A program made the position numbers and the translations under genes. Shown piece after piece: positions 3,242-27,121 of a stretch of 64,000 nt of DNA; positions within the stretch are counted from its first letter, which is position 1; each line of letters opens with the position of its first letter. Origin of the DNA: Candidatus Omnitrophota bacterium. GTDB taxonomy: Bacteria; Omnitrophota; Gorgyraeia; JABMRN01; RBG-13-46-9. The stretch is from contig JABMQJ010000018.1 in the NCBI GenBank assembly GCA_013203315.1, positions 11,292 to 75,291 of the forward strand, written 5' to 3'. Below the pieces are notes generated by a model. It was not told the origin of the DNA, searched no databases, and saw only the letters and a list, made by a program, of their open reading frames with translations.

Positions 3242-3252
3242 GAGGATACCAG

Positions 3253-3870: not shown

Positions 3871-3880
3871 GGTGTAATAA

Positions 3881-4711: not shown

Positions 4712-4759
4712 CATGATTGCTATCGATACATAAAAATAGAATTAGCACTTCGCAAAAAT

Positions 4760-5764: not shown

Positions 5765-5769
5765 ACACA

Positions 5770-6729
5770 ATGGCTAAAAGTGTTGTAAAAAAATATTTTG
5801 AAGAAAATGCAGAATCCTGGGTGGCAGATGGCTACGGAGACGACGGTTATACTTATCCTGTTGGTCACCATCGAACACGCATTGTCCTTAAAGTGCTCTC
5901 AGGGTTAGGCAACTCATTAAAAGTCGTCGATTTAGGTTGCGGAGGAGGTCAGCTTTCTTGCGCATTAGCTGAAAGCGGGCACACCGTTGTCGGAATAGAC
6001 CAATCTGACAAAATGGTTAATATTGCTCAGAAAAACCGAAGTACCTTACCAGCAAAACTTCAGAAAAGAATTAACATAATACGTTGCCCGATAGAAAGTA
6101 ACAATCTTAAAGAGCATTCTTTTGACGCCGTAACGGCAATGGGTCTTATAGGATATCTACGCGATGACAATATACTTTTTAAAATTGCGCACCGGTTATT
6201 AAAACCAAACGGCATTTTTTTAGTGTCATGCAGAAACAGACTTTTTAACATGGTAAGCATAACACCCAAGACGAAAAGAGAGATAAGAAGCAAAACTGCT
6301 ATGCCTTTAATATCAGAGCTGGAAAGCCTGTATAAAACTGTCTCGAAAAAAGATGCTGACGAGCTGGTGCAAAGGTTTAAACACATCACTGCCAGCTTAC
6401 CGAACAAGACAATGTATGGCAAGATGGACATGTTGTCTCCGGCGGAAAAACTTAACGCGAATCCCTATCGCACACAAGTCGAAGCGCGTCAGCATACACC
6501 AAAAAATTTATTGCGCACCGCTATGAAATTTGGTTTTTCCAATAAAGCGTATTACGGCGTTCATCCGCACATAATTGCTCCGCCTGCGAACCGATTGTTA
6601 CCGCCTGGTATTTTTAACAAAATTTCAAATTGCCTGGAAGCACTGGAGCACTTACCTGTTAGTTTAATATGGAGTTCTGTTTTTATAGGTGTTTTTAAGA
6701 AGAAAAAAGAGAAGAATCATGAAAAATGA
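5770..6729 (+). CDS. Class I SAM-dependent methyltransferase
   Basis: Motif I 'VVDLGCGGGQLS' and overall Rossmann methyltransferase layout. Confidence 0.65.
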   Translation: MAKSVVKKYFEENAESWVADGYGDDGYTYPVGHHRTRIVLKVLSGLGNSLKVVDLGCGGGQLSCALAESGHTVVGIDQSDKMVNIAQKNRSTLPAKLQKRINIIRCPIESNNLKEHSFDAVTAMGLIGYLRDDNILFKIAHRLLKPNGIFLVSCRNRLFNMVSITPKTKREIRSKTAMPLISELESLYKTVSKKDADELVQRFKHITASLPNKTMYGKMDMLSPAEKLNANPYRTQVEARQHTPKNLLRTAMKFGFSNKAYYGVHPHIIAPPANRLLPPGIFNKISNCLEALEHLPVSLIWSSVFIGVFKKKKEKNHEK

Positions 6730-8731
6730 AATACTCATCGTTGATATACTTAACATCTATAGCTTATTTTCCGCTGTTACGAGATACAGGGACATTCGTT
6801 TAATCCATTATCTACGTAAAGGCAGATTTGTGAATACAGCGGTTAAACTGCTTACGAAACTGGGCTGGTCATTTGAGTTAATACAGTATTCATTGGATTC
6901 TTTTGGCGGCAAATACCCTTTCAAAGAGCTTAATACGGCTATGCTTGATACGATAACAACATATGGAAAAAAAGTTTTTTCAGGCGAATTAAAAAAATTG
7001 AATATATCAGAATATGAACACAAGCGTTTATTAACTTGCTTTAGTAGTCATATGGGAATGGAGATATACTTCGAGATGCAGCTATTCATTTTGCTTTCAG
7101 TCAACAATCTTTTTGAAAACAAGAACATAAAAGCTATCTTGTTGAGAAAGTCGTTATTTTCTGATGTTTTAAAGGAAATATATGAAAGAAGAAAATTCAG
7201 CACATATTTTTATAGGTCTTTTGATAAGCTATTTATACCACGTGAATTGTATTCTTGGGATAAAGCAATTTTGAGAGCGCGCAAGAAAAATTATCGCAAA
7301 ATTATTAAAATAATTTTATTTTCTTGCTGTTCACTTGTGTTTAAAACGGCCTTACTATTTCTAAAGTCTACCCGTAATATGAAAAAGCATAAGATATGCG
7401 TATTATTGAGTAACAGCTTTGGTACTGTCTTGTCCAATGGCTTGCCATGGGGCGTCGAAGAACCAAGCTATTTAAGAGATGAGACCATCGCATTTTATCG
7501 TGAAACAATGCCAAAAGAGGCTATGGATTTTTATAAGAAGCGTTCAGACAAATTTGTAAAATATAGCTTAAATCCGATAAACTGCGGTAGAAATGTCGAA
7601 ATTGTAAAGCCGTGGTCTGATTTTGCTGGTTTTCTAATAAAAAATATATCGCGTTACCTACCTTTATTCAACTTGCACAAAATAAATCGTTGGCTTTTTG
7701 GGTATATTTTCGATGTTATCGTAGATTTAAGTTTTTTTGAACCTCTATTTCTGTTTAACGGAACAAAGATATTATGGTTTATAGATTCGGATAATACCCA
7801 CATGCAGGTTGCTGCTATAGCAATTAACAGGGTTGGCGGTATTAGTCTTGGTACGTCGGGATCCCTTGCACTCTTACCTGAGTGGAGCATTCACCACAAC
7901 AAAAATGATATTTTCTTTGTTTGGGGCAAACGATTCCTCAATATAAGTATAAACACCAAAGACCAAAGCGATTCTTTTGTGATGACCGGGCATTTTGCGG
8001 ACAAGGCCTTTTTAGATGAGATCAAAAAGGCAGAGGAGTTCCGTTCCTCGCTTACAAAAAAATACCGAATAAAGAATGTAGTTACTTTTTTTGACACCGG
8101 CTCTGGTTGGGATCAGTTTATTACTCCTAGGCGAGTTTTTGAGATATATGAGCAGTTTTTTGCATGGTTGAATGAGGATAACAGCAATTTTCTTGTAATT
8201 AAAGCAAAAGGCCAAAAGACAATAAACAAATATCCTGAATTAAAAAAAGAGATAGACAAATTTTGTACAACTGGACATGCCCTCATTTCTTATGAAAGAT
8301 CCGCTGTATACCCTGGGCTGGCAGCCGACGTTGCTTTAAGCGCATCTCCGACATTATCATCCATAACCGCTATGTTGGGTAGGCCTGTCATATTTTATGA
8401 TATTCAGGGCACATACGATGAATACTCCTTTGCGCTTCCGACTGTTAGTGTCATTGACGATGTGTGCAAGATGCGCGAAGCGATAAATATTGCGATAAGA
8501 AAAAAACAAAATCTTGGGTATCAATACAAGCTAGGGCCGATAAAAGATTCGGCCGTTGATCAATTTGCAGATGGGAAATCTATAGTCAGAATGCGTGCGT
8601 ATATAGAAAATCTATTAGAGGCTTTTGACCAGAAACATTCTAATTCCGCCGCCATAAGATTTGCAAATGATGAGCATAAAAAACAGTGGGGTGAGGGTAC
8701 TGTAACCAGAGGTCCTTTGCCGGTTAAGTAG
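6719..8731 (+). CDS. Large hypothetical protein with TagF/KpsS-like (CDP/CMP-donor GT-B-like) C-terminal domain; paralog of 17489 and 22172
   Basis: C-terminal 'LVIKAKGQ...AADVALSASPTLSSITAMLGRPVIFYD' parallels the TagF-family 'K.HP...aDvLItDYSS...kPiifY' layout. Start placed at the ATG at 6719, which overlaps the preceding gene. Confidence 0.35.
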   Translation: MKNEILIVDILNIYSLFSAVTRYRDIRLIHYLRKGRFVNTAVKLLTKLGWSFELIQYSLDSFGGKYPFKELNTAMLDTITTYGKKVFSGELKKLNISEYEHKRLLTCFSSHMGMEIYFEMQLFILLSVNNLFENKNIKAILLRKSLFSDVLKEIYERRKFSTYFYRSFDKLFIPRELYSWDKAILRARKKNYRKIIKIILFSCCSLVFKTALLFLKSTRNMKKHKICVLLSNSFGTVLSNGLPWGVEEPSYLRDETIAFYRETMPKEAMDFYKKRSDKFVKYSLNPINCGRNVEIVKPWSDFAGFLIKNISRYLPLFNLHKINRWLFGYIFDVIVDLSFFEPLFLFNGTKILWFIDSDNTHMQVAAIAINRVGGISLGTSGSLALLPEWSIHHNKNDIFFVWGKRFLNISINTKDQSDSFVMTGHFADKAFLDEIKKAEEFRSSLTKKYRIKNVVTFFDTGSGWDQFITPRRVFEIYEQFFAWLNEDNSNFLVIKAKGQKTINKYPELKKEIDKFCTTGHALISYERSAVYPGLAADVALSASPTLSSITAMLGRPVIFYDIQGTYDEYSFALPTVSVIDDVCKMREAINIAIRKKQNLGYQYKLGPIKDSAVDQFADGKSIVRMRAYIENLLEAFDQKHSNSAAIRFANDEHKKQWGEGTVTRGPLPVK

Positions 8732-8742
8732 AAGAGGTATAT

Positions 8743-9945
8743 ATGAATTTTACTCGAAAAAAGCTAAATATGGTTGTTGTAGGTGCAGGCATGTATGCTT
8801 GCGGAAGAGGAACGAAAGAATATGGGACAATTATTCCAGCTATCCTTGAATGGAAGAAGAAGGGTAGCCTTGGTGAAGTCTATGTTGTCGGCACAAGTTC
8901 GAAAAATATACGGATATCTAAAAATAAAATAAAAAAGCTTGAAAAATACACGGGTATAAAAGCTCCTTTGACATATTTTCCACAAAATCGAACGAATGAT
9001 TTGCAATGTTACAAAAAAGCGATACGCATGGTTCCCAAGCCTGCAGTCTGCATTATAGCCGTTCCGGATAATCTTCATAGTCGTATCGCAAGCGAAGCAA
9101 TTAAAGCAGGTGTGCATACGTTTGTCGTAAAACCGCTCGCGCCGACAGTAAAAGAAGTTTTGAAGCTAGTTAGCGCTGGCAAGAGAAAAGGTGTTTATTG
9201 CGCCGTAGATTTTCATAAGCGCTTTGACCGCGCTAATATAAAATTAAAAGATACAATCTTGCAGAACGTAATAGGCGATCCTTTGTATTTTCTCGCTGAA
9301 TATAGCCAGCGAAAGAGCATACCGCATAAAAGATTTAGAAAATGGGTTAAAAATACGAATATATTCCAATATCTCGGAATCCACTATCTTGATATCATAT
9401 ATTTTGTTACGGGCGCTACCCCTAAAAGGGCGATGGCAACCGGGCAAAAAGGATGGCTTTTTTCGAAGGGAATAAATACCTACGATTCAATTGAGGCCCA
9501 CATAGAATGGGAGACCTCATCCGGTAAAAAATTCACTTCGCATATATTAACAAATTGGATTGACCCTGAGTCGACATCCGCAATGTCAGACCAGAAAATT
9601 AAAGTAATAGGTACTAAAGGAAGATTTGAGTCAGATCAGAAAAGAAGGGGCATAACGATTGTTACAGATGAAAAAGGCATAGAGGAACCTAATCCATATT
9701 TTTGTTCTGCTTACGGCAAAGACGGAGCAGCTTCTTACCGTGGTTATGGAATAGAGAGCATTCACCAGTTCTTAGAAGATGTAATGCAAATTACCGAATA
9801 CAGGCTAAGCATAGAAGAGCTGGAAGATAAAAGACCTACTTTTAAACAATCTCTAGTACTAACGGCCACTCTGGAAGCTGTAAACAAAAGCCTTAAGAAC
9901 AATAATCAATGGGTAAGGGTTGGGAGCGTGAAGCAATATGACTAA
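8743..9945 (+). CDS. Gfo/Idh/MocA-family NAD(P)-dependent oxidoreductase
   Basis: N-terminal 'MVVVGAG' Rossmann segment. 'VPDNLHSRIASEAIKAGVHTFVVKPLA' matches the Gfo/Idh/MocA consensus (P..H...A..AGKHV..EKP). RBS AAGAGG. Confidence 0.55.
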   Translation: MNFTRKKLNMVVVGAGMYACGRGTKEYGTIIPAILEWKKKGSLGEVYVVGTSSKNIRISKNKIKKLEKYTGIKAPLTYFPQNRTNDLQCYKKAIRMVPKPAVCIIAVPDNLHSRIASEAIKAGVHTFVVKPLAPTVKEVLKLVSAGKRKGVYCAVDFHKRFDRANIKLKDTILQNVIGDPLYFLAEYSQRKSIPHKRFRKWVKNTNIFQYLGIHYLDIIYFVTGATPKRAMATGQKGWLFSKGINTYDSIEAHIEWETSSGKKFTSHILTNWIDPESTSAMSDQKIKVIGTKGRFESDQKRRGITIVTDEKGIEEPNPYFCSAYGKDGAASYRGYGIESIHQFLEDVMQITEYRLSIEELEDKRPTFKQSLVLTATLEAVNKSLKNNNQWVRVGSVKQYD

Positions 9946-11005
9946 GATTCGAATTCCTGTTAATAAACTTAAAAGTTTTGCTAAAGAAGTTTTGTTGAAA
10001 GCGGGTACACGCAAAGATGTGGCGGAATATGTTGCCGAAGGTCTTGCACAAACTTCTTTAAGAGGCGTTGATTCACATGGCATAAGACTTTTTCCTCACT
10101 ATCTTGAAGGTGTCAAAAAAGGGCGAATTAACCCAAAACCAAAATACAAATTTAAAAAAACATCTGCAACTACGGGACTATTTGATGCCGATCATACGTT
10201 TGGTCATGCCGCAGGCATGGAAGCCGCCAAAAAAGCAGTTAAACTTGCTAGTGAAGCAGGCACCGGCCATATCGCTATTTATAACTCAAGTCACTTTGGA
10301 GCGGCGGCGTACTATGCGTTAGAAATAGCGAAACACGATATGATAGGGATGAGTTTTACAAACACAGACGCCCTTGTTAAAACATACGCAGGCAAAAGAT
10401 CCTTTTTAGGTAATAACCCTATATGTTTTGCTGCCCCGTGCAAGGATGAAGAGCCGTTTTGTCTTGATATGGCTACGAGCATAGTAACCTTTAATAAGAT
10501 AAAACAGCTATGTGCAGAAGGTAAAGAAGCTCCACCGGGAGTTGGCACAGATAAAGAAGGGATGGAAACCACCAAGTCATTCGATATAAGTATGCTTTTA
10601 CCCATGGGTACCTATAAAGGCTACGGTCTTAGTATGGTTATAGAAATTTTATGTAGTTTACTGACAGGCGCACCTTACGGACCGCATATTCCAAAGATGT
10701 TTGAGCGGCCTATGAATGAAAAACGTTACCTAGGGCATTTCATAATAGCTATAAATATTGGTTGTTTCCAAAAAATAAATGTTTTTAAAGAACGCTTATC
10801 TTGTATGATGAATGAGCTCAGAAGTGAACCGAGATTGAATGCGGAAATACCTATTCAAATAGCGGGTGATCCCGAGAAAAATGCTGCTAGAAAAAGAACG
10901 ATCGAAGGCATTCCGGTAGATCAAGAAGAGTATGAAAGGTTCAAAAAAATCGCCAATGAATATAAAATTGTTATTGATTTCGATAAAAAAGGAGACCGAC
11001 ATTGA
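9938..11005 (+). CDS. Malate/L-lactate/sulfolactate dehydrogenase family (Ldh_2) oxidoreductase
   Basis: 'RGVDSHGIRLFPHY' and 'TGHIAIYNSSHFGAAAYYA' are signature segments of the Ldh_2 family (AllD/ComC-like). Length is about 355 aa. Confidence 0.55.
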   Translation: MTKIRIPVNKLKSFAKEVLLKAGTRKDVAEYVAEGLAQTSLRGVDSHGIRLFPHYLEGVKKGRINPKPKYKFKKTSATTGLFDADHTFGHAAGMEAAKKAVKLASEAGTGHIAIYNSSHFGAAAYYALEIAKHDMIGMSFTNTDALVKTYAGKRSFLGNNPICFAAPCKDEEPFCLDMATSIVTFNKIKQLCAEGKEAPPGVGTDKEGMETTKSFDISMLLPMGTYKGYGLSMVIEILCSLLTGAPYGPHIPKMFERPMNEKRYLGHFIIAINIGCFQKINVFKERLSCMMNELRSEPRLNAEIPIQIAGDPEKNAARKRTIEGIPVDQEEYERFKKIANEYKIVIDFDKKGDRH

Positions 11006-11127
11006 ATCTATTGAAAGTGCTGATCAAAAAAATAGCAATGTTTTTTGCTAAATATTTTTCAAACGGGAAAAAAAATGATTCGACTCCACCGGATGATTAT
11101 TACCCTCTTTTTTAGAAAGGAAACTTT

Positions 11128-12231
11128 ATGTTTTGGTTAATAATTTTCTTGATTTCAATAATATCTTTAGAAGTTGCATCGTATTTTATATACCGCAGCA
11201 ATAAAGACATAAAGGAAATTTTAAAAGAAATGCTTAAAAGGAGCCAGAAAGGTGACATAAGAACTTTTACGCCCAGATATATAGAGCATCCTTTTCTTGC
11301 ATTTAGCCTAAACCCTGAATTCAAAAATTCTTTTGGAGAAAAAATCCATAACAAATATGGTTTCCGAAGCAATGATGATTTTTCCAACATTAAGGAGAAG
11401 GATCTTATATATTGCGCAGGTGCAAGCTCTACATATTGCAATTTTATCGAAAAAAACGAGGATACTTGGCCTCACATCCTGGAAGGGGAATTACATCAAG
11501 AATTAAACCACGATGACATAAGAGTTATAAACGGCGGCTGCGGTGCTTGGACGAGCTATCAGAGTTTAATAAGGTTTTCTGCCTGGGTAGATGTTATGAA
11601 GCCAAAACTCGTTATTATATATCATGGGAAAAATGATTTTTCACCAATATTAAACGCTAAACCATCGGTGTCAGAAATCTATCCCGATTACGGAAACGTT
11701 ATGCGTTCACTACGATTTGATAGTGTTGCGAGATATCTTCCTCGGCTTGCAAAATATACATATACGGGCAAGGTTTTGTATGGGCGTTACATAAATTCAA
11801 AGTACAGCAACGTATTATGGCACGTATATAATTTAAACAAATTGCTGACGCGAGAAACAGCCTTAAAGAATACACAGAGAATAGGCTCGAGAGAAAAAGA
11901 TATTATATTTTCAAGGTTTAAATCGTTTGCATCCCTGTGTAGCTATAGGGCAATTCCTATTCTTTTTGTTGCCCAGAAAGTAATAAGCGACATCTTCGAG
12001 CCTTACATAAAGGAGCTGAATGAGCGAATAGCGACACTGGAGGACCGTGCCAATGGGTGTTTCGTGTATGATTTCGCTAAAGACGTTGTTGACAAAAAAA
12101 ATCTGCTTTCTGACCACATACACTTTTCAGAAAATGGCACAAAAATTTTCAGTAAACTTTTAAAGAATTATATAGTACGCAATATCACTCCTTTTAAAGA
12201 AGGAAAAGAGAAAGTCCATGTCAGTAAATAG
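11128..12231 (+). CDS. SGNH/GDSL-like hydrolase with N-terminal transmembrane anchor
   Basis: N-terminal hydrophobic helix. Block I-like 'LIYCAGASSTY'. C-terminal 'DHIHFSENG' (DxxH catalytic block). Confidence 0.45.
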   Translation: MFWLIIFLISIISLEVASYFIYRSNKDIKEILKEMLKRSQKGDIRTFTPRYIEHPFLAFSLNPEFKNSFGEKIHNKYGFRSNDDFSNIKEKDLIYCAGASSTYCNFIEKNEDTWPHILEGELHQELNHDDIRVINGGCGAWTSYQSLIRFSAWVDVMKPKLVIIYHGKNDFSPILNAKPSVSEIYPDYGNVMRSLRFDSVARYLPRLAKYTYTGKVLYGRYINSKYSNVLWHVYNLNKLLTRETALKNTQRIGSREKDIIFSRFKSFASLCSYRAIPILFVAQKVISDIFEPYIKELNERIATLEDRANGCFVYDFAKDVVDKKNLLSDHIHFSENGTKIFSKLLKNYIVRNITPFKEGKEKVHVSK

Positions 12232-13888
12232 TAGTATCACAGATTTGGCTATTATTATTCCACCAGCAGGGCCAAAAAATTCAAATTATCCGCCTTACGG
12301 AGCCTTGTATATAGCCGGTGCACTAAAAGAGGCTGGGTACCAGACAGAAATAGTAAACGTTGACACGGAGCGGTATACAAATCAAGAGGTAGTTGAAAAA
12401 ATAAGAAAATTAAACCCTACATATATAGGATTCAGTGGGATAGTGGCGCCATCCTACAAGTACATTAAAGATATAAGTTTTGATTTTAGGAAAGCGTTTG
12501 CGAACAAAGTGCAGATTTTAGGCGGAGGGTTAGCCAGTGCTGCCGAAGCCGTGCTGAAAAACACATCCATAAATATCATCGTCAGAGGCGAAGGAGATAG
12601 AACAATTGTAGAATTAATGGACTGCTTGAAAAAAGGCGGCGATCTGAAAAATGTGCCCGGAATTTGCTATAAAGAAGGAAGCAAGATTGCATATTCTGTC
12701 GATAGACGCTTAATTATGAACCTAGATAGCCTCCCGTATCCCGCATTTGATTTGATAGACATGGATAAATATCTTCCTAACGGAGCTGAATTTATCCAAG
12801 GTTTTACAAGAGGGATAGATGATAAAAGGATCTACCGCTTAAAAAAAAGTGGAAAAAGAAAGATGATTTCTTTTATGACAAGTCGAGGATGCTTTGGCAG
12901 GTGTGCTTTTTGTTTTAGAGCCTATCCCGGCCTAAGAATGTATTCGATAGACTACATTTTTAATTTTATAGACTACTGTATAGAAAAATTTAATGTAGGC
13001 TTTATTACTTTTGCGGATGAATGTTTTGCACCGAATAAGAAAAGGAATTGGGAATTTATAGAAGAGTTTAAAAAAAGAAAACCAGATATTGTTTTTAGAA
13101 TATTAGGAATGCGGGTGGATACTGTAGATAAAGAAATTCTAAAAGCTTATAAAGAAATCGGATGCTGGATGATAGAATACGGCTTCGAATCAGGCAGCCA
13201 AAAAATGCTTAATATAATAAGTAAAGATGTAACAGTAGAAGACAACAGGTGTGCGGCATTGTGGTCAAAAGAAGCAGGAATATTTACCATGCCGACCGCA
13301 GTTTTAGGCATGCCCGGCGAAACAAACGAAACCATACAGGAAACCATAAATTTTCTAAAATCGCTCTCGTTAGATTTCAAGCAATTTCAGTGGTCATATG
13401 CCCTTCCTATACCCGGATCACAACTTTATGACTTTGCAAAGCTAACAGGTGCCATAGATGACGATGATAAATATCTTTCGTCTTTGGTAGGGCCTGTTGG
13501 GCATGCGGGTATTTTTCACATCAATCTTACAGATCAACCGGACGAAGAGGTTGCAAACTGGGCTAGGAAAATAAGCCGAGAGCTGGATAATGATTTTTTT
13601 AATCGAAAGCTTAAGTATAAACATAAATTTATAAAAGAATTGATGCGTCTTATTGCCTTGATAGAGCTTCACCATAGAAAGAAAACCTTGTTTTCTGTGC
13701 TAAGGCTACGGGTTAAAAACTTTTTTAAAAGACACAAAGTCGGAAAAAACCAAAAAGCAGGGATTTGCTTCAGGAAAAAAATAACAATAGACGTAGAACG
13801 ATTTATTAATAAAAATTCATATTTTAATGTAGACAATGAAGTCTCGCTCAAGCGTATTAATAAAAAGCTAAACGAGATAGTAACATAG
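12218..13888 (+). CDS. Cobalamin (B12)-binding radical SAM protein
   Basis: N-terminal B12-binding-like Rossmann region, then radical SAM Cys triad 'TSRGCFGRCAFCF'. C-terminal 'PIPGSQLYD' matches the fragment at 1..339. Confidence 0.7.
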   Translation: MSVNSSITDLAIIIPPAGPKNSNYPPYGALYIAGALKEAGYQTEIVNVDTERYTNQEVVEKIRKLNPTYIGFSGIVAPSYKYIKDISFDFRKAFANKVQILGGGLASAAEAVLKNTSINIIVRGEGDRTIVELMDCLKKGGDLKNVPGICYKEGSKIAYSVDRRLIMNLDSLPYPAFDLIDMDKYLPNGAEFIQGFTRGIDDKRIYRLKKSGKRKMISFMTSRGCFGRCAFCFRAYPGLRMYSIDYIFNFIDYCIEKFNVGFITFADECFAPNKKRNWEFIEEFKKRKPDIVFRILGMRVDTVDKEILKAYKEIGCWMIEYGFESGSQKMLNIISKDVTVEDNRCAALWSKEAGIFTMPTAVLGMPGETNETIQETINFLKSLSLDFKQFQWSYALPIPGSQLYDFAKLTGAIDDDDKYLSSLVGPVGHAGIFHINLTDQPDEEVANWARKISRELDNDFFNRKLKYKHKFIKELMRLIALIELHHRKKTLFSVLRLRVKNFFKRHKVGKNQKAGICFRKKITIDVERFINKNSYFNVDNEVSLKRINKKLNEIVT

Positions 13889-13890
13889 TT

Positions 13891-14634
13891 ATGAAAAAAA
13901 TACTTTCCGGAAAACAGAAAATACTAGCCATGATACCTGCAAGAATGGGCAGTACAAGGCTTTCCATGAAAAATCTTGCACTTATCAATAAAAAACCTCT
14001 TATTTATTATGCTGTTGGAGCCGCCAAAGCGTCAAAGATATTTGATGACATAATTATCAATTCCGAGGATGGTATATTCAAAAAAATAGCAGCGCGCTAT
14101 AAAGTAAAATTTTATAAAAGGCCTATTAAATTAGGCGGTTCCTCTGTTAAATCCGATATGGTTGTATATGATTTTATCAAGAAAAACCCCTGTGATATCG
14201 TCGTATGGGTTAATACTATAGCACCGCTTCAAGTCGGGGAGGAAATTAAAAATATAGTAAAATATTTTGTTAATAAAAAACTCGATTCACTCATAACGGT
14301 TAAAGACGAACGAGTTCACTGTATATATAAAGGCAAGCCCGTTAATTTCAAGAAAGAAGCCACTTTTGCTAAAACGCAGGATCTTTTGCCGGTTCAACCC
14401 TTTGTATATTCGGTTATGATGTGGCGAACGGATGTCTTTATGAGCACCTTCAAGAAAAAAGGGCACGCGCTTTTCTGCGGCAAGACAGCTTTTTATCCGG
14501 TAAGCAAGCTATCAACATTTATAATCAAGAGAAAAGAAGACCTTGCATTGGCAGATTTTATTATGCGTGCGATGAAAAAAAGATACAGGGTGTGCTATGA
14601 CAAAGTTCTCAAAAATAGGAGAACAGGGAATTGA
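13891..14634 (+). CDS. Acylneuraminate cytidylyltransferase-family protein (CMP-sugar-acid synthetase-like)
   Basis: 'LAMIPARMGSTRLSMKNL' N-terminal nucleotide-binding loop typical of NeuA/PseF/LegF-type cytidylyltransferases. Confidence 0.7.
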   Translation: MKKILSGKQKILAMIPARMGSTRLSMKNLALINKKPLIYYAVGAAKASKIFDDIIINSEDGIFKKIAARYKVKFYKRPIKLGGSSVKSDMVVYDFIKKNPCDIVVWVNTIAPLQVGEEIKNIVKYFVNKKLDSLITVKDERVHCIYKGKPVNFKKEATFAKTQDLLPVQPFVYSVMMWRTDVFMSTFKKKGHALFCGKTAFYPVSKLSTFIIKRKEDLALADFIMRAMKKRYRVCYDKVLKNRRTGN

Positions 14635-16016: not shown

Positions 16017-16019
16017 AAC

Positions 16020-17492
16020 ATGAAAATTTATTTTGTATACCCAGACATCTCATCCTTTCACGGTCTTCCGTACCATGCTGGACTTGCGTCGATTGCATCA
16101 ACACTGATTGAGCATGGTCACGAAGTCAGGGTAAGCTATTTCGATAATATCAATAAGACGAAAGACATCGTACAAGATATACGCGCTTTTAAAGCTAAGT
16201 TGGTTGGCTTTACTACCGTTGAAACTCAATCTCGATATGCAAAACACCTCGCCTCGGAAATAAAAAAAACGCATCCTTGCTTTATTGTCTCTGGTGGTCC
16301 TCATGCAACATTAGCACCGGAAAGCATGCTTGATAATAATAGTTCTATTGACGCGGTTATTATCGGAGAGGGAGAGCGTGCAGTGACGGAACTAGTTGAA
16401 AAACTTGAAAAAGGCGAAAGCTGGTCGCACCTGAATAACATTGTTTATCGTGATAAAAAAACAGAGCACTTGATAAAGAACCGGTTAAATCCCCTTATTG
16501 ATAATCTTGACTCCTTAAGCTACCCGGCTACAGAGCTTTTTCCGTATCAAGATATAATAAACCGCCATAATATAGCGATGTTCCATTTTAATAGAGGGTG
16601 CCCTTATCGGTGTGGTTTTTGCTCGAACGTTGCCCTTGGCAAGATCTACGATTTGCCGTCGAATCGTGTAAGATTCCGGTCAGTTGAAAGCGTGATTGAT
16701 GAGATTAATGCTACGCTTTCGAAATATAGATTACGTGATGACACGGTTCTGCATTTCAGCGACGATTTGTTCACATTAAATAAAAAGTGGATAACTCATT
16801 TCTGCGATCTTTACAGAGAAAAAATCGGTAGACCATTCTGGTGCACCGGAAGATCAAATCTTATGACCGAAGAGATATGTGCGGTTCTAAAAAAGGCAGG
16901 GTGTGTATTACTTATGATGAGTGTTGAGTCGGGCAACGATTACATTCGCAACAAAGTGATGTTGCGTGATATAGACAGGGAGACAATGTTCAGGTCCTTT
17001 GATTTGTGCCACAAGCACGGAATCAATACCTTGGCAACGTGTATTATAGGGCTTCCGTTCGAAACAATAGAGATGATAGAGGATTCCATCAAGACCGTGA
17101 CCAAGCTCAAGTCCATTACTTCATACGGTATCAATATTTTTTATCCATATCAGGGGACATATTTGAGGAAAGTTTGTGAAGAGAAGGGGCTCATGTCGTC
17201 ACGAATCGAGAATGATTTTATAGAACGTAAGGGTTCGATTTTAAACCTGCCCGATTTGCCTAATGATAAACTGTTATACTATTATAACAATTGGATAAGT
17301 CTGATTATGCGACATAAGCTGGCAAAGGAAAGAATAAAATATGCGCTACGTAACTGGTGGCAAGTGGTTAGAAAAACAGCCTTTGGCGACAAAATACGCC
17401 ACATTATAAACAACACAAGGCTTGGGAAAGCATTCAAAAAATATATAATGAAACACGTTTGGAGCCGCAATTACGCGGAAAGAACTGTATGA
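16020..17492 (+). CDS. Cobalamin (B12)-binding radical SAM protein
   Basis: B12-binding-like N-terminal region, then 'NRGCPYRCGFCSN' radical SAM Cys triad. Confidence 0.7.
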   Translation: MKIYFVYPDISSFHGLPYHAGLASIASTLIEHGHEVRVSYFDNINKTKDIVQDIRAFKAKLVGFTTVETQSRYAKHLASEIKKTHPCFIVSGGPHATLAPESMLDNNSSIDAVIIGEGERAVTELVEKLEKGESWSHLNNIVYRDKKTEHLIKNRLNPLIDNLDSLSYPATELFPYQDIINRHNIAMFHFNRGCPYRCGFCSNVALGKIYDLPSNRVRFRSVESVIDEINATLSKYRLRDDTVLHFSDDLFTLNKKWITHFCDLYREKIGRPFWCTGRSNLMTEEICAVLKKAGCVLLMMSVESGNDYIRNKVMLRDIDRETMFRSFDLCHKHGINTLATCIIGLPFETIEMIEDSIKTVTKLKSITSYGINIFYPYQGTYLRKVCEEKGLMSSRIENDFIERKGSILNLPDLPNDKLLYYYNNWISLIMRHKLAKERIKYALRNWWQVVRKTAFGDKIRHIINNTRLGKAFKKYIMKHVWSRNYAERTV

Positions 17493-19378
17493 AAATAAAG
17501 AAGCTTGTATTTGTCGATAATATCACTGGCTGCGGAAAAGGGGATGCCGATACATTATATATTGCGTTAAAACCAGCTGCATATTCCTATCTCAAAAAGC
17601 AGGGCGCGAATGTGCATTCCACGATTAATTATTTTACCAACGATTCGCACAAAAAAGCGTTAGAGAAATCCGAAGCACTTATGAAATGGATAAGAAGGGA
17701 ATTGAAATTTAAGAGCCTTGACATAGGTGTGAACCGGGCATACAGCGATCTTTTTTCTTTCTGGATGCGGCTCGAGATCCACTATTTTTTATGGACAACG
17801 GAGATTATCAGGAATGCAGCTATTCTGCATAAACCCGAGATAATCGCCGCTGCCCTTCCGGGTAAATACGCCAGCATGAAGCTATCCATAGAGTCCGAAG
17901 AATGCTATTTAGGTACCCTAGCACAGGCAATGGCACGTAACGAAAATATAGAATTCGAAAATCTCAGTAAAAGCAGAATTAAACACGCAAAAAATTTTCC
18001 AGATATCGATACGAGAAGAATAAAACACCTTATAAAATTTATATTGAAATACGTTAAGTTTTACATATGGCAAAGGGTCTTATATTTTAGAAATATGAAT
18101 AATAAAAAACGTCCTGTTTTTTTTGCGACGATGCACTACAATATGCACAGTCTCGCCAATGACTTAAAGAAAGCAATTCCGGATAGAAAATTTTACCTAT
18201 TCACAGGCCCGATTCTTTCTTACACAAAAATACCGCGCATATTTATAAAAATGTTTGAAAGACGTTTTGCAAAAACTATACTAGGACAGAAAGAACTATT
18301 GGATGGTTTTGCGACAAAACTTGGCAAAGAAACAACTCTTTTTTCCTCAAATGGCATTTCTTTTTCTTCCATGCTTTCCCATAAAATAAAGGCCAATATC
18401 ACAGACCACATAATAAGTTTCTATCTTTGGACGGCAAAACTTGATAGTTGTCTGGATATTATAAAACCTGGCATGGTCATATCAAACGGTAACCGTTCAG
18501 ACGATATCGCCCTCGCAGAGCTATGTTTAAGAAAAAAAATCCCTGACATATTAATATCGCACGGTTCTCATGTATGTCCGAAAAACAAATACGAATGCAT
18601 AGAATGGGGTGAGCATGGGGTAGCTTTTTTAAAGGCGCCGTTTTCATCCCTGGTATTGCAGTCGCCTCTTGCAGAAGGATATATTAAAGCCTTTCCAACG
18701 CAAAGCAATATATTTCGTAGCAAACCCATTCTTTGGGGTAAGCCGGCAGAACCTAATATAAAGGCGAATTTATCCAAGGAATTGCTCGAGTTAAAACATG
18801 AAAAGCAGAATGTAAAAATCATAGTGCACGCGGGCACACCCAAAATGAGCAATAATCTACGATTATATGTTTACGAAACGCCCGATGAATATCTGGAAGC
18901 GCTTTCTGATCTGGCGAATACAGTGAAGAGCATGAAAGAGACAGTTCTCATCGTAAAGTTTCGGCCGTCACCTGAAATCAGCGTTAATAACCTTAGAGAG
19001 CGTATACCTTTTTCAGAAAACGTGATTTTAAGTGTGGAGGAACCGTTCAATGCTGTACTGGAAATGGCGGATGTATTGATAAGCTTTTCTTCTACCACTA
19101 TCGAAGAGGCATTGCAAAAAAAGATTCCTGTTTTGCTTTACGGCGGACAAGGTAGGTATAAACACGTTTCTGCCGGAAGCATTACACTCGGAGATCCCGT
19201 TAAGCCGGAAGCCGTTTATCATGTGGAAAATAAGCAAGACTTGAAATATGCTATAAAAACGATTTTGGGGTTAAATATCAATGGTAAAAATAGAGATAAC
19301 GATTTATTTAAACCGTATATATATCCTGACCACGAGACGAAACCGCTTCTTAATTTGATAGAAAAAGAGGTCGGATGA
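17489..19378 (+). CDS. Large hypothetical protein with TagF/KpsS-like GT-B C-terminal domain (paralog of 6719 and 22172)
   Basis: ATGA overlap with the preceding gene. C-terminal 'LIVKFRPSPE...MADVLISFSSTTIEEALQKKIPVLLYG' aligns by eye with the equivalent blocks of the other two large proteins. Confidence 0.35.
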   Translation: MKIKKLVFVDNITGCGKGDADTLYIALKPAAYSYLKKQGANVHSTINYFTNDSHKKALEKSEALMKWIRRELKFKSLDIGVNRAYSDLFSFWMRLEIHYFLWTTEIIRNAAILHKPEIIAAALPGKYASMKLSIESEECYLGTLAQAMARNENIEFENLSKSRIKHAKNFPDIDTRRIKHLIKFILKYVKFYIWQRVLYFRNMNNKKRPVFFATMHYNMHSLANDLKKAIPDRKFYLFTGPILSYTKIPRIFIKMFERRFAKTILGQKELLDGFATKLGKETTLFSSNGISFSSMLSHKIKANITDHIISFYLWTAKLDSCLDIIKPGMVISNGNRSDDIALAELCLRKKIPDILISHGSHVCPKNKYECIEWGEHGVAFLKAPFSSLVLQSPLAEGYIKAFPTQSNIFRSKPILWGKPAEPNIKANLSKELLELKHEKQNVKIIVHAGTPKMSNNLRLYVYETPDEYLEALSDLANTVKSMKETVLIVKFRPSPEISVNNLRERIPFSENVILSVEEPFNAVLEMADVLISFSSTTIEEALQKKIPVLLYGGQGRYKHVSAGSITLGDPVKPEAVYHVENKQDLKYAIKTILGLNINGKNRDNDLFKPYIYPDHETKPLLNLIEKEVG

Positions 19379-20367
19379 TACAAAAGAAAGAATTGTTAAA
19401 TGAAATGAAGAATTCAAAGGCATTAAAATCGCTTGCTGTTTTTGGCAAAAAGCGTTTTTACAACATATATCATAGGGCAAGGCTGATTAAAACCGAATTT
19501 CCATCAGAAATCTGGATTGAAAATACCAATTGTTGTAACGCCTCTTGCGTGATGTGCCCTCGTGAAAAACATACAAGAGCGCAGGGGTTCATGGATTTTT
19601 CACTTTTTGAAAAGCTAGCTAAGGAAATATCGCATTTTGGCAATATTGTAAAGAGGGTACATTTACACAACTATGGTGAACCCTTACTAGATAGAGACCT
19701 TGCCCGGCGCATAAGAACGGCGAAAGATTGCGGTATTAAGCATACATATATTGTTACCACTGCTTCGCTTCTTACCGTCGCGAAATCCAAAGAGATTATA
19801 GAAGCAGGCCTTGATGAGATGAAAATTAGTTTCTATGGGACCGATCAAAAAACGTATAACGATACAATGGTAGGACTTGACTTTTACAAGACACTTACCA
19901 ATGTGGCCGATTTTTTTAAAACAAGAAAGAAAATTGGGAAAAAGAATCCCCGAGTAGTCTTGCAATATCTGCCAACAGACAGCAATAAATCAAAGACAGA
20001 AGATTTTTTCCGTATCTTAAAACCGCTTATCGAAGAAGAAGTGGGAGATTGTTTCAATATTTTTGAACTCCACAATTATGGGTCCGGAAGATCCTATGTT
20101 AAATTGGGAGATATAACGCGGATTTGTCATTTTCCCTGGCGCACCATGGTTATTTTGCATGATGGGAAAGCAGTGCTCTGTTCACCCGATTATAATGGAT
20201 TGCAGGTAGTTGGTGACACTAACACGAACACGATAAAAGAAATATGGAACGGTAATAAATATAAAAAGGTAAGGCAGGATTTTAAAAAATTAGAGTATCA
20301 AAATTACTCAGTTTGTAAAGAGTGTACCGCTGTGCGAGAAACTATGTACCCTAAAATAAATAGATAG
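19375..20367 (+). CDS. Radical SAM protein with SPASM/twitch-like C-terminal Cys motif
   Basis: 'NTNCCNASCVMCPR' CxxxCxxC motif. C-terminal 'CSPDY...CKECTAV'. ATGA overlap with the preceding gene and GAGG RBS. Confidence 0.6.
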   Translation: MIQKKELLNEMKNSKALKSLAVFGKKRFYNIYHRARLIKTEFPSEIWIENTNCCNASCVMCPREKHTRAQGFMDFSLFEKLAKEISHFGNIVKRVHLHNYGEPLLDRDLARRIRTAKDCGIKHTYIVTTASLLTVAKSKEIIEAGLDEMKISFYGTDQKTYNDTMVGLDFYKTLTNVADFFKTRKKIGKKNPRVVLQYLPTDSNKSKTEDFFRILKPLIEEEVGDCFNIFELHNYGSGRSYVKLGDITRICHFPWRTMVILHDGKAVLCSPDYNGLQVVGDTNTNTIKEIWNGNKYKKVRQDFKKLEYQNYSVCKECTAVRETMYPKINR

Positions 20368-20378
20368 GATCATATCAA

Positions 20379-22175
20379 ATGAAGGTTACAAAATTTGTAT
20401 TTCGTTATCTCAAAGTTTATCCGGCTCTCTCATTAACGATTTTAGCGCTTATCATTATAACATCACTTTTTGAAGGTGCAAGTTTTAGCGTCCTTATTCC
20501 GCTAATACAAAGCATGATTGGTGGAAGCACTAACCTGTTTGATAAAATCCCATTCATAAACACCTTATGGCAGCCTTTTTCATCTATGGGGCAAGCAGAA
20601 ACGGTGTCACTTATCTTTATTTTGATGCTTGGGCTGCTTTTGATAAAAAATGTATTTGTGTATTTTTCCGGCGTTCTCATAGCAAAATTAGGATTTGGAG
20701 CGACACGGGACTTCAGAGTAAAACTTATGGACAATTTACTTGATTACGATATGCGTTTTTTTGATAGCGCTAAAACAGGCCACATAATAGCCAGCATTAA
20801 TACCGAAACCGAGCGTATGGGGAATTTTATAAAGGCAGTTCTTCAGCTTATTGCCTTTTCCGGAAAAGTAATTGCATATATGGTGCTTTTATTTCTAATA
20901 TCATGGAAGGTAAGCATCTTGGTATTTTCATTGGTTGCAATAGTTTTAATACCTATTGAGTCTATCATGAAGAAGATAAGGGACGTAAGCATGTTTATAT
21001 CAAGCGCTGTCGCAAATTATAATTATAAATTAATAGAATTACTCAGCGGTATACGACTTATAAGGGCATGCGGTACCGAGAGTTTGGAGAAAAAAGCTTT
21101 TAAAACCAAAGCGGACGACATCTTTAATTTTCGCTATAAAGGGCATAAGTATATAAATCTTATCATACCCTTGTCGGAGGTTTTAATATTCACCCTTATC
21201 GTGATTAGCGTTCTGGTCCTTATTAATGTTGTAAAAGTAGATATTGCAAGCACGTTCCCTTTGATGGCTACATATCTACTCGCTATGGTAAGGATGCTTA
21301 CGCAGATAAACACGCTAAACAATAACCGCTCTGCTGCATTGAAGAAATTAGCATCATTTACGGTCTACGATAGATTTTATGACGAAAGAGGTAAAAAGGC
21401 GATAAAAAACGGGCAGAAAAAAATCAATGTTTTTTCTAATTCAATAGAATTTAAAAAAGTAAATTTTTCTTACACAAAGGACAAAGAAGTCTTGAGAGAT
21501 GTAAGCATGAAAGCCCCAAAAGGAAAAGTAACCGCCCTTGTGGGTGCCTCCGGAGCAGGCAAGAGTACAATTGTTAATTTAATATTGAGGTTTTACGAAG
21601 TTAATTCGGGAGATATATTGGTTGACGGAGTAAGTTTAAAAAGTTTTGATTTGAAAAGCTGGAGGCAAAAAATCGGTCTTGTTTCGCAGGATGTATTTAT
21701 TTTTAACACAAGCGTGAAAGATAATATTGCCTATGGCCACGCGCGAATAGAGGAAGAAAAAATAGTCGCCGCTGCCAAAACAGCTAATGCGCATGATTTT
21801 ATAATGAGCTTCCCCAATCAGTATGACACAATTTTAGGGGAAAGAGGCGTGAGACTTTCAGGCGGACAAAAACAGCGAATTTCCATAGCCAGAGCCATCA
21901 TACATAATCCCGAGATACTAATTCTTGACGAGGCAACCAGTTCGCTTGATACAAAAACAGAAATATTAATAAATGAAGCTGTTGACAGACTTACTAAAGA
22001 CCGAACAGTTATAGCTATTGCGCATCGGCTATCTACGATTCTGCATGCAGACAATATTATTGTTTTAGACGAAGGCAGGGTTGTTGAAAGCGGCACACAT
22101 CCAAGTCTGATAAGCGAAAAGGGTCTTTATAAACAATTATATGATGTGCAGTTTAGTTCTCAGGTAGCAAGATGA
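20379..22175 (+). CDS. ABC transporter, fused permease/ATP-binding protein (MsbA-like exporter)
   Basis: Six predicted N-terminal TM segments. Walker A 'GASGAGKST', ABC signature 'LSGGQKQRISIARAI', Walker B 'ILILDEATS'. Confidence 0.85.
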   Translation: MKVTKFVFRYLKVYPALSLTILALIIITSLFEGASFSVLIPLIQSMIGGSTNLFDKIPFINTLWQPFSSMGQAETVSLIFILMLGLLLIKNVFVYFSGVLIAKLGFGATRDFRVKLMDNLLDYDMRFFDSAKTGHIIASINTETERMGNFIKAVLQLIAFSGKVIAYMVLLFLISWKVSILVFSLVAIVLIPIESIMKKIRDVSMFISSAVANYNYKLIELLSGIRLIRACGTESLEKKAFKTKADDIFNFRYKGHKYINLIIPLSEVLIFTLIVISVLVLINVVKVDIASTFPLMATYLLAMVRMLTQINTLNNNRSAALKKLASFTVYDRFYDERGKKAIKNGQKKINVFSNSIEFKKVNFSYTKDKEVLRDVSMKAPKGKVTALVGASGAGKSTIVNLILRFYEVNSGDILVDGVSLKSFDLKSWRQKIGLVSQDVFIFNTSVKDNIAYGHARIEEEKIVAAAKTANAHDFIMSFPNQYDTILGERGVRLSGGQKQRISIARAIIHNPEILILDEATSSLDTKTEILINEAVDRLTKDRTVIAIAHRLSTILHADNIIVLDEGRVVESGTHPSLISEKGLYKQLYDVQFSSQVAR

Positions 22176-23686
22176 AAAAAACAATTCTTTTTAATCCCGT
22201 TGGCATTGTCCACGATAGAAATATCGAGAAATTCGAAAATGTATTATCAGAGTGGAATATAAGGCGTCTATACAATCCAAATCTTCCATGGACATCGTCT
22301 TTCAGGAAAGACAAAGCCGACACGCATTATTTTACCGGCGGAAGGGTACCTGATAGTGCCTTCAAAGATGTAAGAGCAGTTATTTGCTTTTCAGCGCAAC
22401 CACGGATTCCGTTTTCAGTTCTTGCGGAAAAGGCGTTGCTTCGATCCATCCCGGTAATCGCCATAGAAGAGGTGTATCAAATGGCTTTGCAGCAGGGCCA
22501 CGTGAACGAATATTTTTTGCCTGTTGATCATCTTTTTGTCGGTTCGGATTACGAAAAAGACGCGTTTCTTAAAATAGGTGTACCGGAAAATGTTGTCGAG
22601 GTAACGGGTTGCCCGTTTCGGATAAGCAAAGAGAAGGGCACATCGGATATAGAAGAAAAGTATAATATTAAAAGAATACTCGGTTGTGATCCGAAAAAAC
22701 CCCTTGCCGTGATTTGCCTTACACTTCTTACTCCTGACGGAGAAACAAGAGAAGTGAGACAAAGGATTCTGGGCATGGCAAGCAAAGAAGTGCCCGAAAG
22801 CTATGAATTGATCGTAAAGGCGCATCCCGCAGAAGACAAAAAGAATCTTGAGGAATTCGTGAAAGAATTCGCACCCAGGGCAAGGGTAGTTGATTCGCAT
22901 ATACCAATCGAAAGAATATTAAAGGCTACCGATGTATTATTTAACAGAAGCAATTCACAGGTTGTCATAGATGCGCTTGACAAGCACGTCCCTGTAATCG
23001 CGTTGCCGCTGGGTAAAAGAAGTATATTTCACGGATTAATAGAAGAGGTTATAGCGGATAAGCCGGAAGACATTAAAAACATATTAGAGCTTATAAAAGC
23101 GAAGGGCATGGCCCTCTATAAGCCTATTTTTGAAAAATACCTTTATATAACACCTGAGGAATCATTAAGCAAGGTGGCCTCGCGTATTGCCGAGATAGCG
23201 GAGAACGGTGATCTCTACAAGCCCGAAGAGCGTTTGTTAGAATTTGGATTGTTTTGGGCATGGATGGGGTACCCGTCACAGTCGTTTAGGGTTTTTGATG
23301 CGCTTCCGAGAGTTTTTAAAAGGACAAATGAACATCTTGACGCGGCGCGTCAGCTCGTTTCCTGCAAAGCAACTCATGAAAATATCGATTCTTTGAAGAA
23401 GTGGGCATCGCGCAGCTACAGGGAGTGGATAGTAAAAAGCTTGTGGATCAGGTCTTTATATCTAAACCGGAGTAAGATGAATGATTTCGACGTGCAATGG
23501 CTTGCCGATTTTCCTCCGAGGATGAATAGATACCATTTTCTGCCATTTACGCGCATGCTCGGATGGTGCTATAAACGGTCCGGATTGCAATTTGATAAAA
23601 ACATCAGCAGCTGGCGGGAGCAAGTTAGTTCTAATTTAAAAACGTCACTTAAAGATATTGTGTTTAGCCACAAAATGAGGCATTAG
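22172..23686 (+). CDS. Hypothetical protein with TagF/KpsS-like GT-B domain (paralog of 6719 and 17489)
   Basis: 'LIVKAHPAED...ATDVLFNRSNSQVVIDALDKHVPVIALP' matches the shared K.(H/R)P...aDV..S.S...PVi block. ATGA overlap with the ABC transporter gene. Confidence 0.3.
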   Translation: MKKTILFNPVGIVHDRNIEKFENVLSEWNIRRLYNPNLPWTSSFRKDKADTHYFTGGRVPDSAFKDVRAVICFSAQPRIPFSVLAEKALLRSIPVIAIEEVYQMALQQGHVNEYFLPVDHLFVGSDYEKDAFLKIGVPENVVEVTGCPFRISKEKGTSDIEEKYNIKRILGCDPKKPLAVICLTLLTPDGETREVRQRILGMASKEVPESYELIVKAHPAEDKKNLEEFVKEFAPRARVVDSHIPIERILKATDVLFNRSNSQVVIDALDKHVPVIALPLGKRSIFHGLIEEVIADKPEDIKNILELIKAKGMALYKPIFEKYLYITPEESLSKVASRIAEIAENGDLYKPEERLLEFGLFWAWMGYPSQSFRVFDALPRVFKRTNEHLDAARQLVSCKATHENIDSLKKWASRSYREWIVKSLWIRSLYLNRSKMNDFDVQWLADFPPRMNRYHFLPFTRMLGWCYKRSGLQFDKNISSWREQVSSNLKTSLKDIVFSHKMRH

Positions 23687-27048: not shown

Positions 27049-27121
27049 TGGCTTGCATATTTAGCGGCTGATAATAGTTAGGCATTTTTAAGTTTTTTAT
27101 AAAAAGAAAGAGGTGTCGACG

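Follow-up and report, generated by a model that had tools for sequence, protein, structure and literature searches.

Recognizing the transferases of bacterial sialic-acid-like sugars, such as pseudaminic and legionaminic acids, is notoriously difficult, and few have been proven. The BFO_1060/Tanf_01245 family (NF046086) of Tannerella forsythia, which was shown genetically to transfer derivatives of pseudaminic (Pse) and legionaminic (Leg) acids, has a TagB-like GT-B domain with D/E-D/E-G and HP motifs (PMC5420450) and is encoded beside cytidine monophosphate (CMP)-nonulosonate genes. Other GT-B enzymes that invite comparison are TagF/TarL (PF04464; 3L7I and 8VA1), which use a cytidine-nucleotide donor and, in addition to the GT-B core, possess membrane-binding helices and a long N-terminal extension; KpsC/KpsS and the GT38, GT52, and GT80 sialyltransferases, which are CMP-ulosonate-dependent and contain the HP motif; the uridine diphosphate N-acetylglucosamine (UDP-GlcNAc) 2-epimerases NeuC/WecB (PF02350); and the GT28 enzymes of the UgtP or monogalactosyldiacylglycerol-synthase type (9WDE). 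Here, we compare with these families three large proteins, A (positions 6719-8731, 670 aa), B (17489-19378, 629 aa), and C (22172-23686, 504 aa), that are encoded in a 64,000-nucleotide stretch of DNA (hereafter, the window) from a Candidatus Omnitrophica metagenome-assembled genome. The initial annotation of the window placed the three open reading frames (ORFs) correctly with respect to coordinates and length. All three lie on the plus strand in one long, co-directional, operon-like array in which gene ends overlap by 4-11 nt; A and B are identical to HQ549_04535 and HQ549_04575, respectively, which are "hypothetical proteins" of a Candidatus Omnitrophica metagenome-assembled genome in the NCBI records.

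The genes for A, B, and C lie in a surface-glycan locus whose products would be nonulosonic, legionaminic-acid-like sugars in CMP-activated form. The three proteins share the GT-B fold, are homologous to one another, and are encoded by linked genes, and we lean toward the view that they are three different GT-B enzymes, relatives at the superfamily level, that transfer nonulosonic-type sugars from CMP-activated donors, B being the signature of a gene cassette. Neither the fold nor the broad kind of enzyme is new; the families themselves have no Pfam model and are annotated only as "hypothetical," and our literature searches retrieved no description of the cassette or of the A, B, or C families.

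The evidence of mutual homology comes from a C-terminal block on the basis of which the three proteins had been described as paralogous and TagF/KpsS-like. The block itself is borne out: in profile-profile alignments, LVIKAKGQ of A, LIVKFRPSPE of B, and LIVKAHPAED of C occupy the same columns, and AADV..GRPVIFYD, MADV..IPVLLYG, and ATDV..VPVIALP, respectively, co-align as well. Pairwise BLASTP was marginal, with E values of 0.029 for A/B and 0.026 for B/C and nothing collinear for A/C. Comparison of the C-terminal halves of the family profiles using hhalign yielded E values of 1.1e-5 for A/B (261 columns), 8.5e-5 for A/C, and 1.9e-4 for B/C, with the alignments of the three pairs spanning 191-261 columns, and because negative controls with mismatched halves gave E values of 0.04-0.6, the similarity at 1e-5 to 2e-4 is real. 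To judge from these comparisons, the similarity among the three proteins is detectable above chance at the level of family profiles only. The N-terminal halves, which had been called divergent, indeed show no detectable sequence similarity between A and B (E value of 0.18), but their predicted secondary-structure order is alike.

The depth of this relationship was gauged with a control profile built from five sequences of a canonical NeuC-like epimerase from the same loci. This profile matched the A family with an E value of 4.5e-7 (probability 93%, 269 columns), better than A matched B or C, and the C family with an E value of 4e-5; the ordinary GT4 gene of the window matched A at 4.7e-5 and C at 7e-4 (all hhalign). 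On this evidence, A, B, and C are related only at the level of the GT-B superfamily, and what they share in the block is the C-terminal domain with which GT-B enzymes generally bind nucleotides. The term "paralogous" is thus inappropriate, as the three proteins are no closer to one another than to other GT-B families and each has an ortholog family of its own. At the position of the "HP" motif of sialyltransferases, KpsS, and TagF, C has an invariant H-P, B has R492-P493 with R492 invariant, and A has K497-x. All three proteins have a basic net charge. Invariant residues include D459, K497, D537, D561, D618, and R624 in A; H358, H361, K452, R458, R492, S534-S535, E539-E540, and H559 in B; and E99, E100, H218, N258-R259, and S262 in C.

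The A family appeared to be an orphan in a word-index search, and an exhaustive HMMER search yielded 480 relatives; the B family comprises about 120 homologues, mainly from Omnitrophota and also from Nitrospirae, Methylomirabilales, and Dehalococcoidales. AlphaFold2 models based on the family alignments had a predicted local distance difference test score (pLDDT) of 93.6 and a predicted template modeling score (pTM) of 0.93 for A, and a pLDDT of 92.6 and a pTM of 0.92 for B. When these models were compared with the PDB using Foldseek, 166 and 208 matches, respectively, were found at E ≤ 1e-3, all of them GT-B enzymes. The list for A is headed by NeuC (3.9e-8), TarL (4.3e-8), and TagF (1.3e-7), followed by further epimerases, and that for B by NeuC/WecB UDP-GlcNAc 2-epimerases (~1e-8), VldE, and a trehalose transferase, with the TagF-like Cps3D at rank 32. 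TagF and TarL are thus both among the best structural matches of A (E values of 4e-8 to 1e-7), with template modeling scores of only 0.3-0.5, no better than those for epimerases. Searches of the PDB sequences with the A-family and B-family profiles gave nothing meaningful. If the order of strands and the match with the NeuC-like profile are taken as a guide, the GT-B core of A would comprise approximately residues 222-660 and that of B would start near residue 205. Ahead of the core, each protein has an additional alpha/beta region at the N-terminus and then a long helix, which is hydrophobic in A (residues 195-213; Kyte-Doolittle 2.09) and strongly amphipathic and basic in B (residues 175-195), so that the GT-B core, the long N-terminal extension, and the membrane-binding type of helices are features A and B have in common with TagF/TarL. 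The invariant motifs in the alignment of the B family are ISHGSH, HAGTPK, YETPDEY, FRP, SFSSTTIEEAL, and GRYxH, and two invariant histidines, H358 and H361, are located in a loop of the N-domain. TagF, for comparison, has a catalytic histidine in the N-domain and a second histidine that binds phosphate (H444 and H584); in sequence, A shows neither an N-domain histidine pair like that of B nor the HP histidine.

Protein C differs in architecture. The profile of its family (58 homologues) matched the GT28 enzyme UgtP (9wde) in the PDB with an E value of 6.4e-8 over 225 residues, from the last part of the N-domain through the entire C-domain. Among solved structures, UgtP is therefore nearest to C in sequence, and the match supports a predicted GT-B fold with a core at about residues 1-340. 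C has no N-terminal extension; its own addition is a helical domain of about 160 aa at the C-terminus, which is rich in aromatic residues. The residues E99-E100 and H218-P219 (the "HP" motif) are invariant; the acidic pair precedes a V, not the G of the D/E-D/E-G motif that bacterial GT-B sialyltransferases have in the N-domain alongside HP in the C-domain. UgtP has no HP motif in the aligned strand, and the helical domain of C is extra. The match denotes homology and not membership in the UgtP family; C is closer to UgtP, and likewise to the profile of NeuC-like epimerases, than it is to either A or B.

The assignment of the three proteins to the TagF/KpsS family was not upheld by the family models. 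Glyphos_transf (PF04464) gave no match to A, B, or C at E ≤ 10 and matched none of the 60 A-family and none of the 51 B-family members scanned; Capsule_synth matched C below its threshold only (15.3 bits, cut-off 20; E value of 0.014), with no match to A or B. The GT-B fold of all three proteins is the part of the assignment that stands, whereas the TagF and KpsS family thresholds were missed. The remaining matches, among them those to TIGR04326, TIGR04396, and TIGR04417, which are models of "surface carbohydrate biosynthesis" proteins, were likewise below the cut-offs. For the A family, these were TIGR04417 (5/60, up to 2e-11), BFO_1060 (4/60), and TIGR04396 (3/60), with no match of A itself to TIGR04417 or BFO_1060 and no match of any of the 60 members to Epimerase_2 (PF02350). 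In the B family, BFO_1060_trans was matched by 34 of the 51 members, DUF6716 by 31, and Epimerase_2 by 5 (best 2.5e-5), and B itself scored 23.4 bits with BFO_1060 (cut-off 200) and 14.1 bits with Epimerase_2 (cut-off 30.6). Among 37 C-family members, 32 matched TIGR04326, 18 matched BFO_1060 (best 3.7e-9), and 12 matched the UgtP-type model, and a few each matched polysialyltransferase, the N-terminal domain of Kdo transferase, Capsule_synth (4/37), and Glyphos_transf (3/37, best 9.4e-5); C itself scored 18.3 bits with BFO_1060 (cut-off 200), 23 bits with TIGR04326 (cut-off 250), 19.7 bits with NF010135, the equivalog model of UgtP/diglucosyl-diacylglycerol synthase (cut-off 500), and 17.7 bits with A-2_8-polyST (cut-off 23.3), and also gave matches to diglucosyl-diacylglycerol synthase and macrolide glycosyltransferases.

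Among the described transferases, the BFO_1060 family thus offers several points of likeness, namely, the genomic setting, the HP motif and acidic pair of C, and the similarity of its C-domain core to the A, B, and C families in the hidden Markov model (HMM) searches. It differs in that the scores are about 18-35 bits, compared with the cut-off of 200, with the matched profile positions confined to approximately 200-290 of 365, and in that A and B exceed it in length by about 250-300 aa and have K-x and R-P, respectively, in place of H-P. KpsC/KpsS and the GT-B sialyltransferases share the HP motif with C, whereas A and B match neither Capsule_synth nor polysialyltransferase models and lack the HP histidine. 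The earlier suggestion of cytidine-nucleotide donors finds support in a locus with NeuA-type enzymes and in the sub-threshold matches to the BFO_1060, polysialyltransferase, Capsule_synth, and Glyphos_transf models; the accompanying transferase activity is what we infer from these data.

The genomic context of B was examined in 80 metagenome loci encoding B relatives, with co-occurrence counted in the 23 that are 15 kb or longer. The ORFs of each locus were searched with family HMMs and with the proteins of the window, up to 10 kb away from a gene in both directions, so that the identity of a neighbor refers to its similarity to the window's own proteins. B was accompanied by a CT2-like cytidylyltransferase in 22 of the 23 loci, a GT2-CT3 fusion in 21, a GFO/IDH/MocA oxidoreductase in 20, and an Ldh_2 dehydrogenase in 19; the corresponding counts were 9/23 for the A family, 4/23 for a LIC12162-type large protein, and 2/23 for the C family. 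These counts indicate that B is part of a conserved five-gene cassette with two cytidylyltransferase domains per B gene. In the window, the cassette extends over 8743-19378 and consists, according to Pfam matches, of genes for a GFO/IDH/MocA oxidoreductase (8743-9945, plus strand), Ldh_2 (9938-11005, plus strand), a CTP_transf_3 protein designated CT2 (13891-14634, plus strand), a GT2-CTP_transf_3 fusion, of which CTP_transf_3 is the C-terminal half and is designated CT3 (14631-16016, plus strand), and B. The third cytidylyltransferase, CT1 (345-1061, plus strand; Pfam CTP_transf_3 1.4e-12; PDB NeuA 1eyr 7.8e-6), belongs to an upstream legionaminic-acid-like module. The three NeuA-family domains reported previously are all confirmed as CTP_transf_3 by Pfam, and NeuA is the closest solved structure for each of them. 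The cassette occurs in at least two gene orders in several phyla and, on the more tentative proposal given below, would be widespread in the surface-glycan loci of Omnitrophota, Nitrospirota, and Methylomirabilota and of numerous uncultured bacteria from the sea and from fresh water.

A is often at the upstream end, in the order A-GFO-Ldh_2-...-CT2-GT2/CT3-B, as in the window and in loci L002, L017, L018, and L026. In searches of genome contigs with the A-family profile, only 3 A-family loci were found, and tblastn searches of plasmids with A and with C gave no match. In loci L006 and L007, A-family genes are located beside genes for a CT1-like cytidylyltransferase, NeuB, an ABC exporter, and an amidotransferase. 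A short contig, L006, has two A-family genes (4883-6976 and 8136-9872), each adjoining an amidotransferase-like gene of its own, which suggests duplication of the pair. Just upstream of B in loci without an A-family gene (L004, at 4316-6076, and L058-L062), there are large LIC12162 proteins (PF27859). These are remote GT-B relatives (E values of 1.6e-4 with the A family and 9e-5 with a GT4 profile) and may be functional substitutes for A.

Close relatives of C always occur in the order B-ABC/SPASM-C-B12 radical SAM-GT2 (L002, L010, L091, and L093), downstream of CT2, GT2-CT3, and B. In the window, a SPASM radical SAM gene (19375-20367) and an ABC exporter gene (20379-22175) lie between B and C, each with a 4-nt overlap with its neighbor, and genes for a B12-binding radical SAM protein (23693-25213) and a GT2 protein (25226-26206) follow C; all four were identified with Pfam and are on the plus strand. 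A distant relative of C, in locus L092, is accompanied by CTP_transf_3, an HpcH-type aldolase, and a HAD phosphatase. Near C-family genes generally, the commonest arrangement is a SPASM gene directly upstream, and in the window the ABC exporter gene separates the two; a radical SAM gene adjoins or is near the C-family gene in nearly all close-relative loci examined.

These neighborhoods bear on the proposed pairing of each large protein with one cytidylyltransferase. B travels with two CTP_transf_3 genes, A and C are each present in a minority of the B loci, and locus L018 encodes A, B, and C, yet has only two CTP_transf_3 genes within 22 kb. The match of three to three is a coincidence of the window and not a conserved feature. 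Furthermore, EpaA, a fusion of CTP_transf_3 with an aldo-keto reductase, epimerizes pseudaminic acid together with EpaB, a short-chain dehydrogenase/reductase (SDR) (PMC12053666), a precedent showing that extra CTP_transf_3 domains can belong to tailoring enzymes rather than to separate activated sugars. Two ideas on cassette genes were dropped: Acinetobacter aciABCD as a precedent for the GFO/Ldh_2 redox pair, given that AciB and AciE are SDRs, and a PtmF-like identity of the GFO gene, as the Gfo/Idh/MocA gene of Rhizobium sp. WL3 gave no match to the window GFO at E ≤ 1e-3.

Several observations weigh against the view that the three proteins are transferases for CMP-activated sugars. The top structural matches of B, and the best one of A, are UDP-GlcNAc 2-epimerases rather than transferases; the best alignment of the A family is the one with the Epimerase_2-type NeuC-like profile, it includes a C-terminal NPYGxG-like motif, and the DPFxDGxAxxR-type C-terminal motif of epimerases is kept in A; and the GNRxDD, ISHGSH, and HAG motifs of B align with GDRFE, HIHGG, and HP of NeuC, at a non-significant E value of 0.011. 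No curated family threshold in Pfam or NCBIfam is reached by A, B, or C, and the sub-threshold matches are limited to the generic nucleotide-binding part of the profiles. Two distant relatives of C have no CTP_transf_3 gene within 10 kb, and SpsB of B. subtilis, which has a TagB domain with DEG and HP motifs and is encoded beside CMP-Leg genes, is yet dispensable for Leg transfer (PMC7439481). The epimerase-like features, along with the five B-family matches to Epimerase_2, underlie the main competing explanation, that B especially, and possibly A, is a NeuC-, LegG-, or PseG-like hydrolase or epimerase of a nucleotide sugar, which we regard as rather unlikely. Canonical NeuC-like genes co-exist with B in loci L001, L068/L069, and L082, and NeuB, PtmE-, LegB-, and LegC-like genes also lie in such loci, so that B does not replace the pathway's own epimerase; the specific idea that B stands in for the NeuC or LegG of the pathway was rejected on these grounds. 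Moreover, when A is aligned with the NeuC-like profile by hhalign, the catalytic positions of epimerases, namely, GDxxE, HxEAG/HIHGGE, and the histidine of the C-domain, are not conserved in it. Apart from missing the Epimerase_2 threshold, A and B exceed epimerases by 250-300 aa in length and have a membrane-associated look, and in the B family, matches to the Pse/Leg transferase model outnumber those to Epimerase_2 (34/51 vs 5/51).

The model in the initial annotation, with three paralogous TagF/KpsS-type transferases, one for each cytidylyltransferase product, would account for the equal counts in the window, the high rank of TagF/TarL among the structural matches of A, and the sub-threshold matches of C and its family to the Capsule_synth, polysialyltransferase, and Glyphos_transf models. 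It appears quite improbable given the missed Glyphos_transf and Capsule_synth thresholds, the greater proximity of A to Epimerase_2 and of C to UgtP and the NeuC-like profile, the two cytidylyltransferase domains per B gene, and the EpaA precedent. We consider it very improbable that the proteins are TagF/TarL-like phosphotransferases or polymerases that use a cytidine diphosphate (CDP)-linked donor to make a phosphodiester polymer for ABC export. The ranks of TarL and TagF (2-3 for A) and of Cps3D for B, the long N-terminal extensions and membrane helices of A and B, and the ABC exporter in the array are compatible with such a function, and "SFSST" and "PVIFYD" resemble the "DYSS" and "PiifY.D" motifs of the TagF family. 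However, there is no CDP-alditol-forming cytidylyltransferase of the TagD/IspD type adjoining these genes, where all three domains are of the NeuA type and make CMP-ulosonates; in addition, neither A nor B matches Glyphos_transf, and A lacks the HP histidine. For C, a distinct possibility, which we take seriously without favoring it, is an ordinary GT28/GT1-like glycosyltransferase that uses a nucleoside diphosphate sugar, such as a UDP-hexose, and has no special link to CMP sugars. Its best solved relative, UgtP, is a UDP-glucose enzyme, the diglucosyl-diacylglycerol synthase and macrolide glycosyltransferase matches are in line with this, and C is found in only two of the 23 B loci, with distant relatives that lack CTP_transf_3 neighbors. 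Against this interpretation are the invariant HP motif and EE pair, the BFO_1060 matches in 18 of 37 family members, the matches of other members to the polysialyltransferase, Capsule_synth, and Glyphos_transf models, the constant position of close relatives downstream of CT2, GT2-CT3, and B, and the pairing with CTP_transf_3 in L092.

If A, B, and C are indeed transferases for CMP-activated nonulosonic-type sugars, as we are inclined to think, their donors, their activity, and the roles of individual residues would be as follows. The proteins would be peripheral-membrane glycosyltransferases that transfer an acidic sugar, activated with a cytidine nucleotide, to a lipid-linked or growing glycan. 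The C-domain would bind the cytidine-nucleotide sugar, with the beta-strand ending in K-x-(H/R/K)-(P/G) facing the donor phosphate and the strand-helix-strand element "xDxxxS(S/T)xxxEAL..PV" holding the phosphate and ribose, and both the acceptor and the catalytic base would be offered by conserved loops of the N-domain, which are GGxSxG...S in A, ISHGSH and EWGEHG in B, and IAIEEV in C. In view of their positive charge and membrane-type helices, the proteins may act on the inner side of the membrane, and the adjacent ABC exporter would handle the product. B would be the dedicated transferase of the five-gene cassette, in which GFO/IDH/MocA and Ldh_2 probably modify the sugar further, while its activation or retention would fall to the two cytidylyltransferase domains. 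C would be a shorter enzyme, nearest to GT28 and endowed with the HP motif, that is coupled to the SPASM, ABC exporter, B12 radical SAM, and GT2 proteins. A more far-reaching and more tentative proposal, possible rather than probable in our estimation, is that the cassette makes and installs a novel CMP-activated nonulosonic-type sugar, perhaps altered by the B12/SPASM enzymes, and that A, B, and C, along with the LIC12162-type proteins, are three to four new glycosyltransferase families.

With these results, three uncharacterized families gain a confident fold assignment and a reproducible neighborhood centered on NeuA-type cytidylyltransferases, and the attractive idea of a one-to-one correspondence between transferases and cytidylyltransferases is corrected. 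If the transferase function proposed here is true, these proteins would represent new glycosyltransferase families and markers of a conserved cassette for an acidic sugar in poorly known phyla.

A homologue of B from a cultured bacterium was detected by a tblastn search of plasmids, which gave one match, FVA81_RS03340, a 398-aa hypothetical protein of Rhizobium sp. WL3 (locus L094; plasmid NZ_CP042825.1, 618485-619681 and 621533-627382). This protein contains the whole signature of the C-domain of B (HMM E value of 3e-33), namely, HAG, ETxEE(F/Y), RP, FSTT(V/I)ExAL, and PVLL(W/Y)G..RY. According to the PGAP annotation, its locus encodes neuC, neuB, an acetyltransferase, a nucleotidyltransferase, Gfo/Idh/MocA, an acylneuraminate cytidylyltransferase, and an SDR, as well as an N-acetyl sugar amidotransferase with WbuZ and HisH, an ABC transporter, and then a second neuB and neuC. 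This gene content strengthens the link of the B domain to nonulosonic-acid glycans, and FVA81_RS03340, as a tractable homologue, provides an experimental handle on B. Downstream of it, there are four consecutive genes for hypothetical proteins of 449-513 aa, one of which weakly matches the C-family profile (E value of 8e-5).

Radical SAM genes are unusually dense for a glycan locus. The window contains genes for 2 SPASM and 4 B12-binding proteins (1078-2100, 12218-13888, 16020-17492, 19375-20367, 23693-25213, and 36227-37558), and one more is found just upstream (2182-3621 of L001), a density that suggests C-methylation or other radical tailoring of sugars. The B12 radical SAM gene upstream of the window on the same contig is accompanied by CBS-NTP_transferase and Epimerase_2 genes, a set that, by comparison with the Campylobacter ptm/leg genes, would fit a pathway of the legionaminic-acid type.

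Other genes of the array point to additional decorations of the glycan. The product of 2084-3241 has a match (4e-70) in the Rhizobium sp. WL3 protein that PGAP annotates as an N-acetyl sugar amidotransferase, and its gene is followed by a HisH/WbuZ-like pair at 3214-4711, a combination that implies an acetamidino-type modification of the sugar. A Cys-rich, PP-loop-like block is common to this protein and the product of 27113-29092 (BLASTP 4e-21), in which an N-terminal class-II glutamine amidotransferase domain is fused on. A sulfotransferase-domain gene at 4760-5764, within the nonulosonic-acid module, hints at a sulfated glycan. The 705-aa ORF at 52870-54987 had no Pfam match at E ≤ 1e-5, and none of the A, B, C, NeuC-like, and LIC12162 profiles revealed a relationship to it. 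The mechanically called ORF at 25969-27048 overlaps the GT2 gene downstream of C by 238 nt; its methyltransferase domain fits a start at 26206, so that the long start at 25969 is probably unused.

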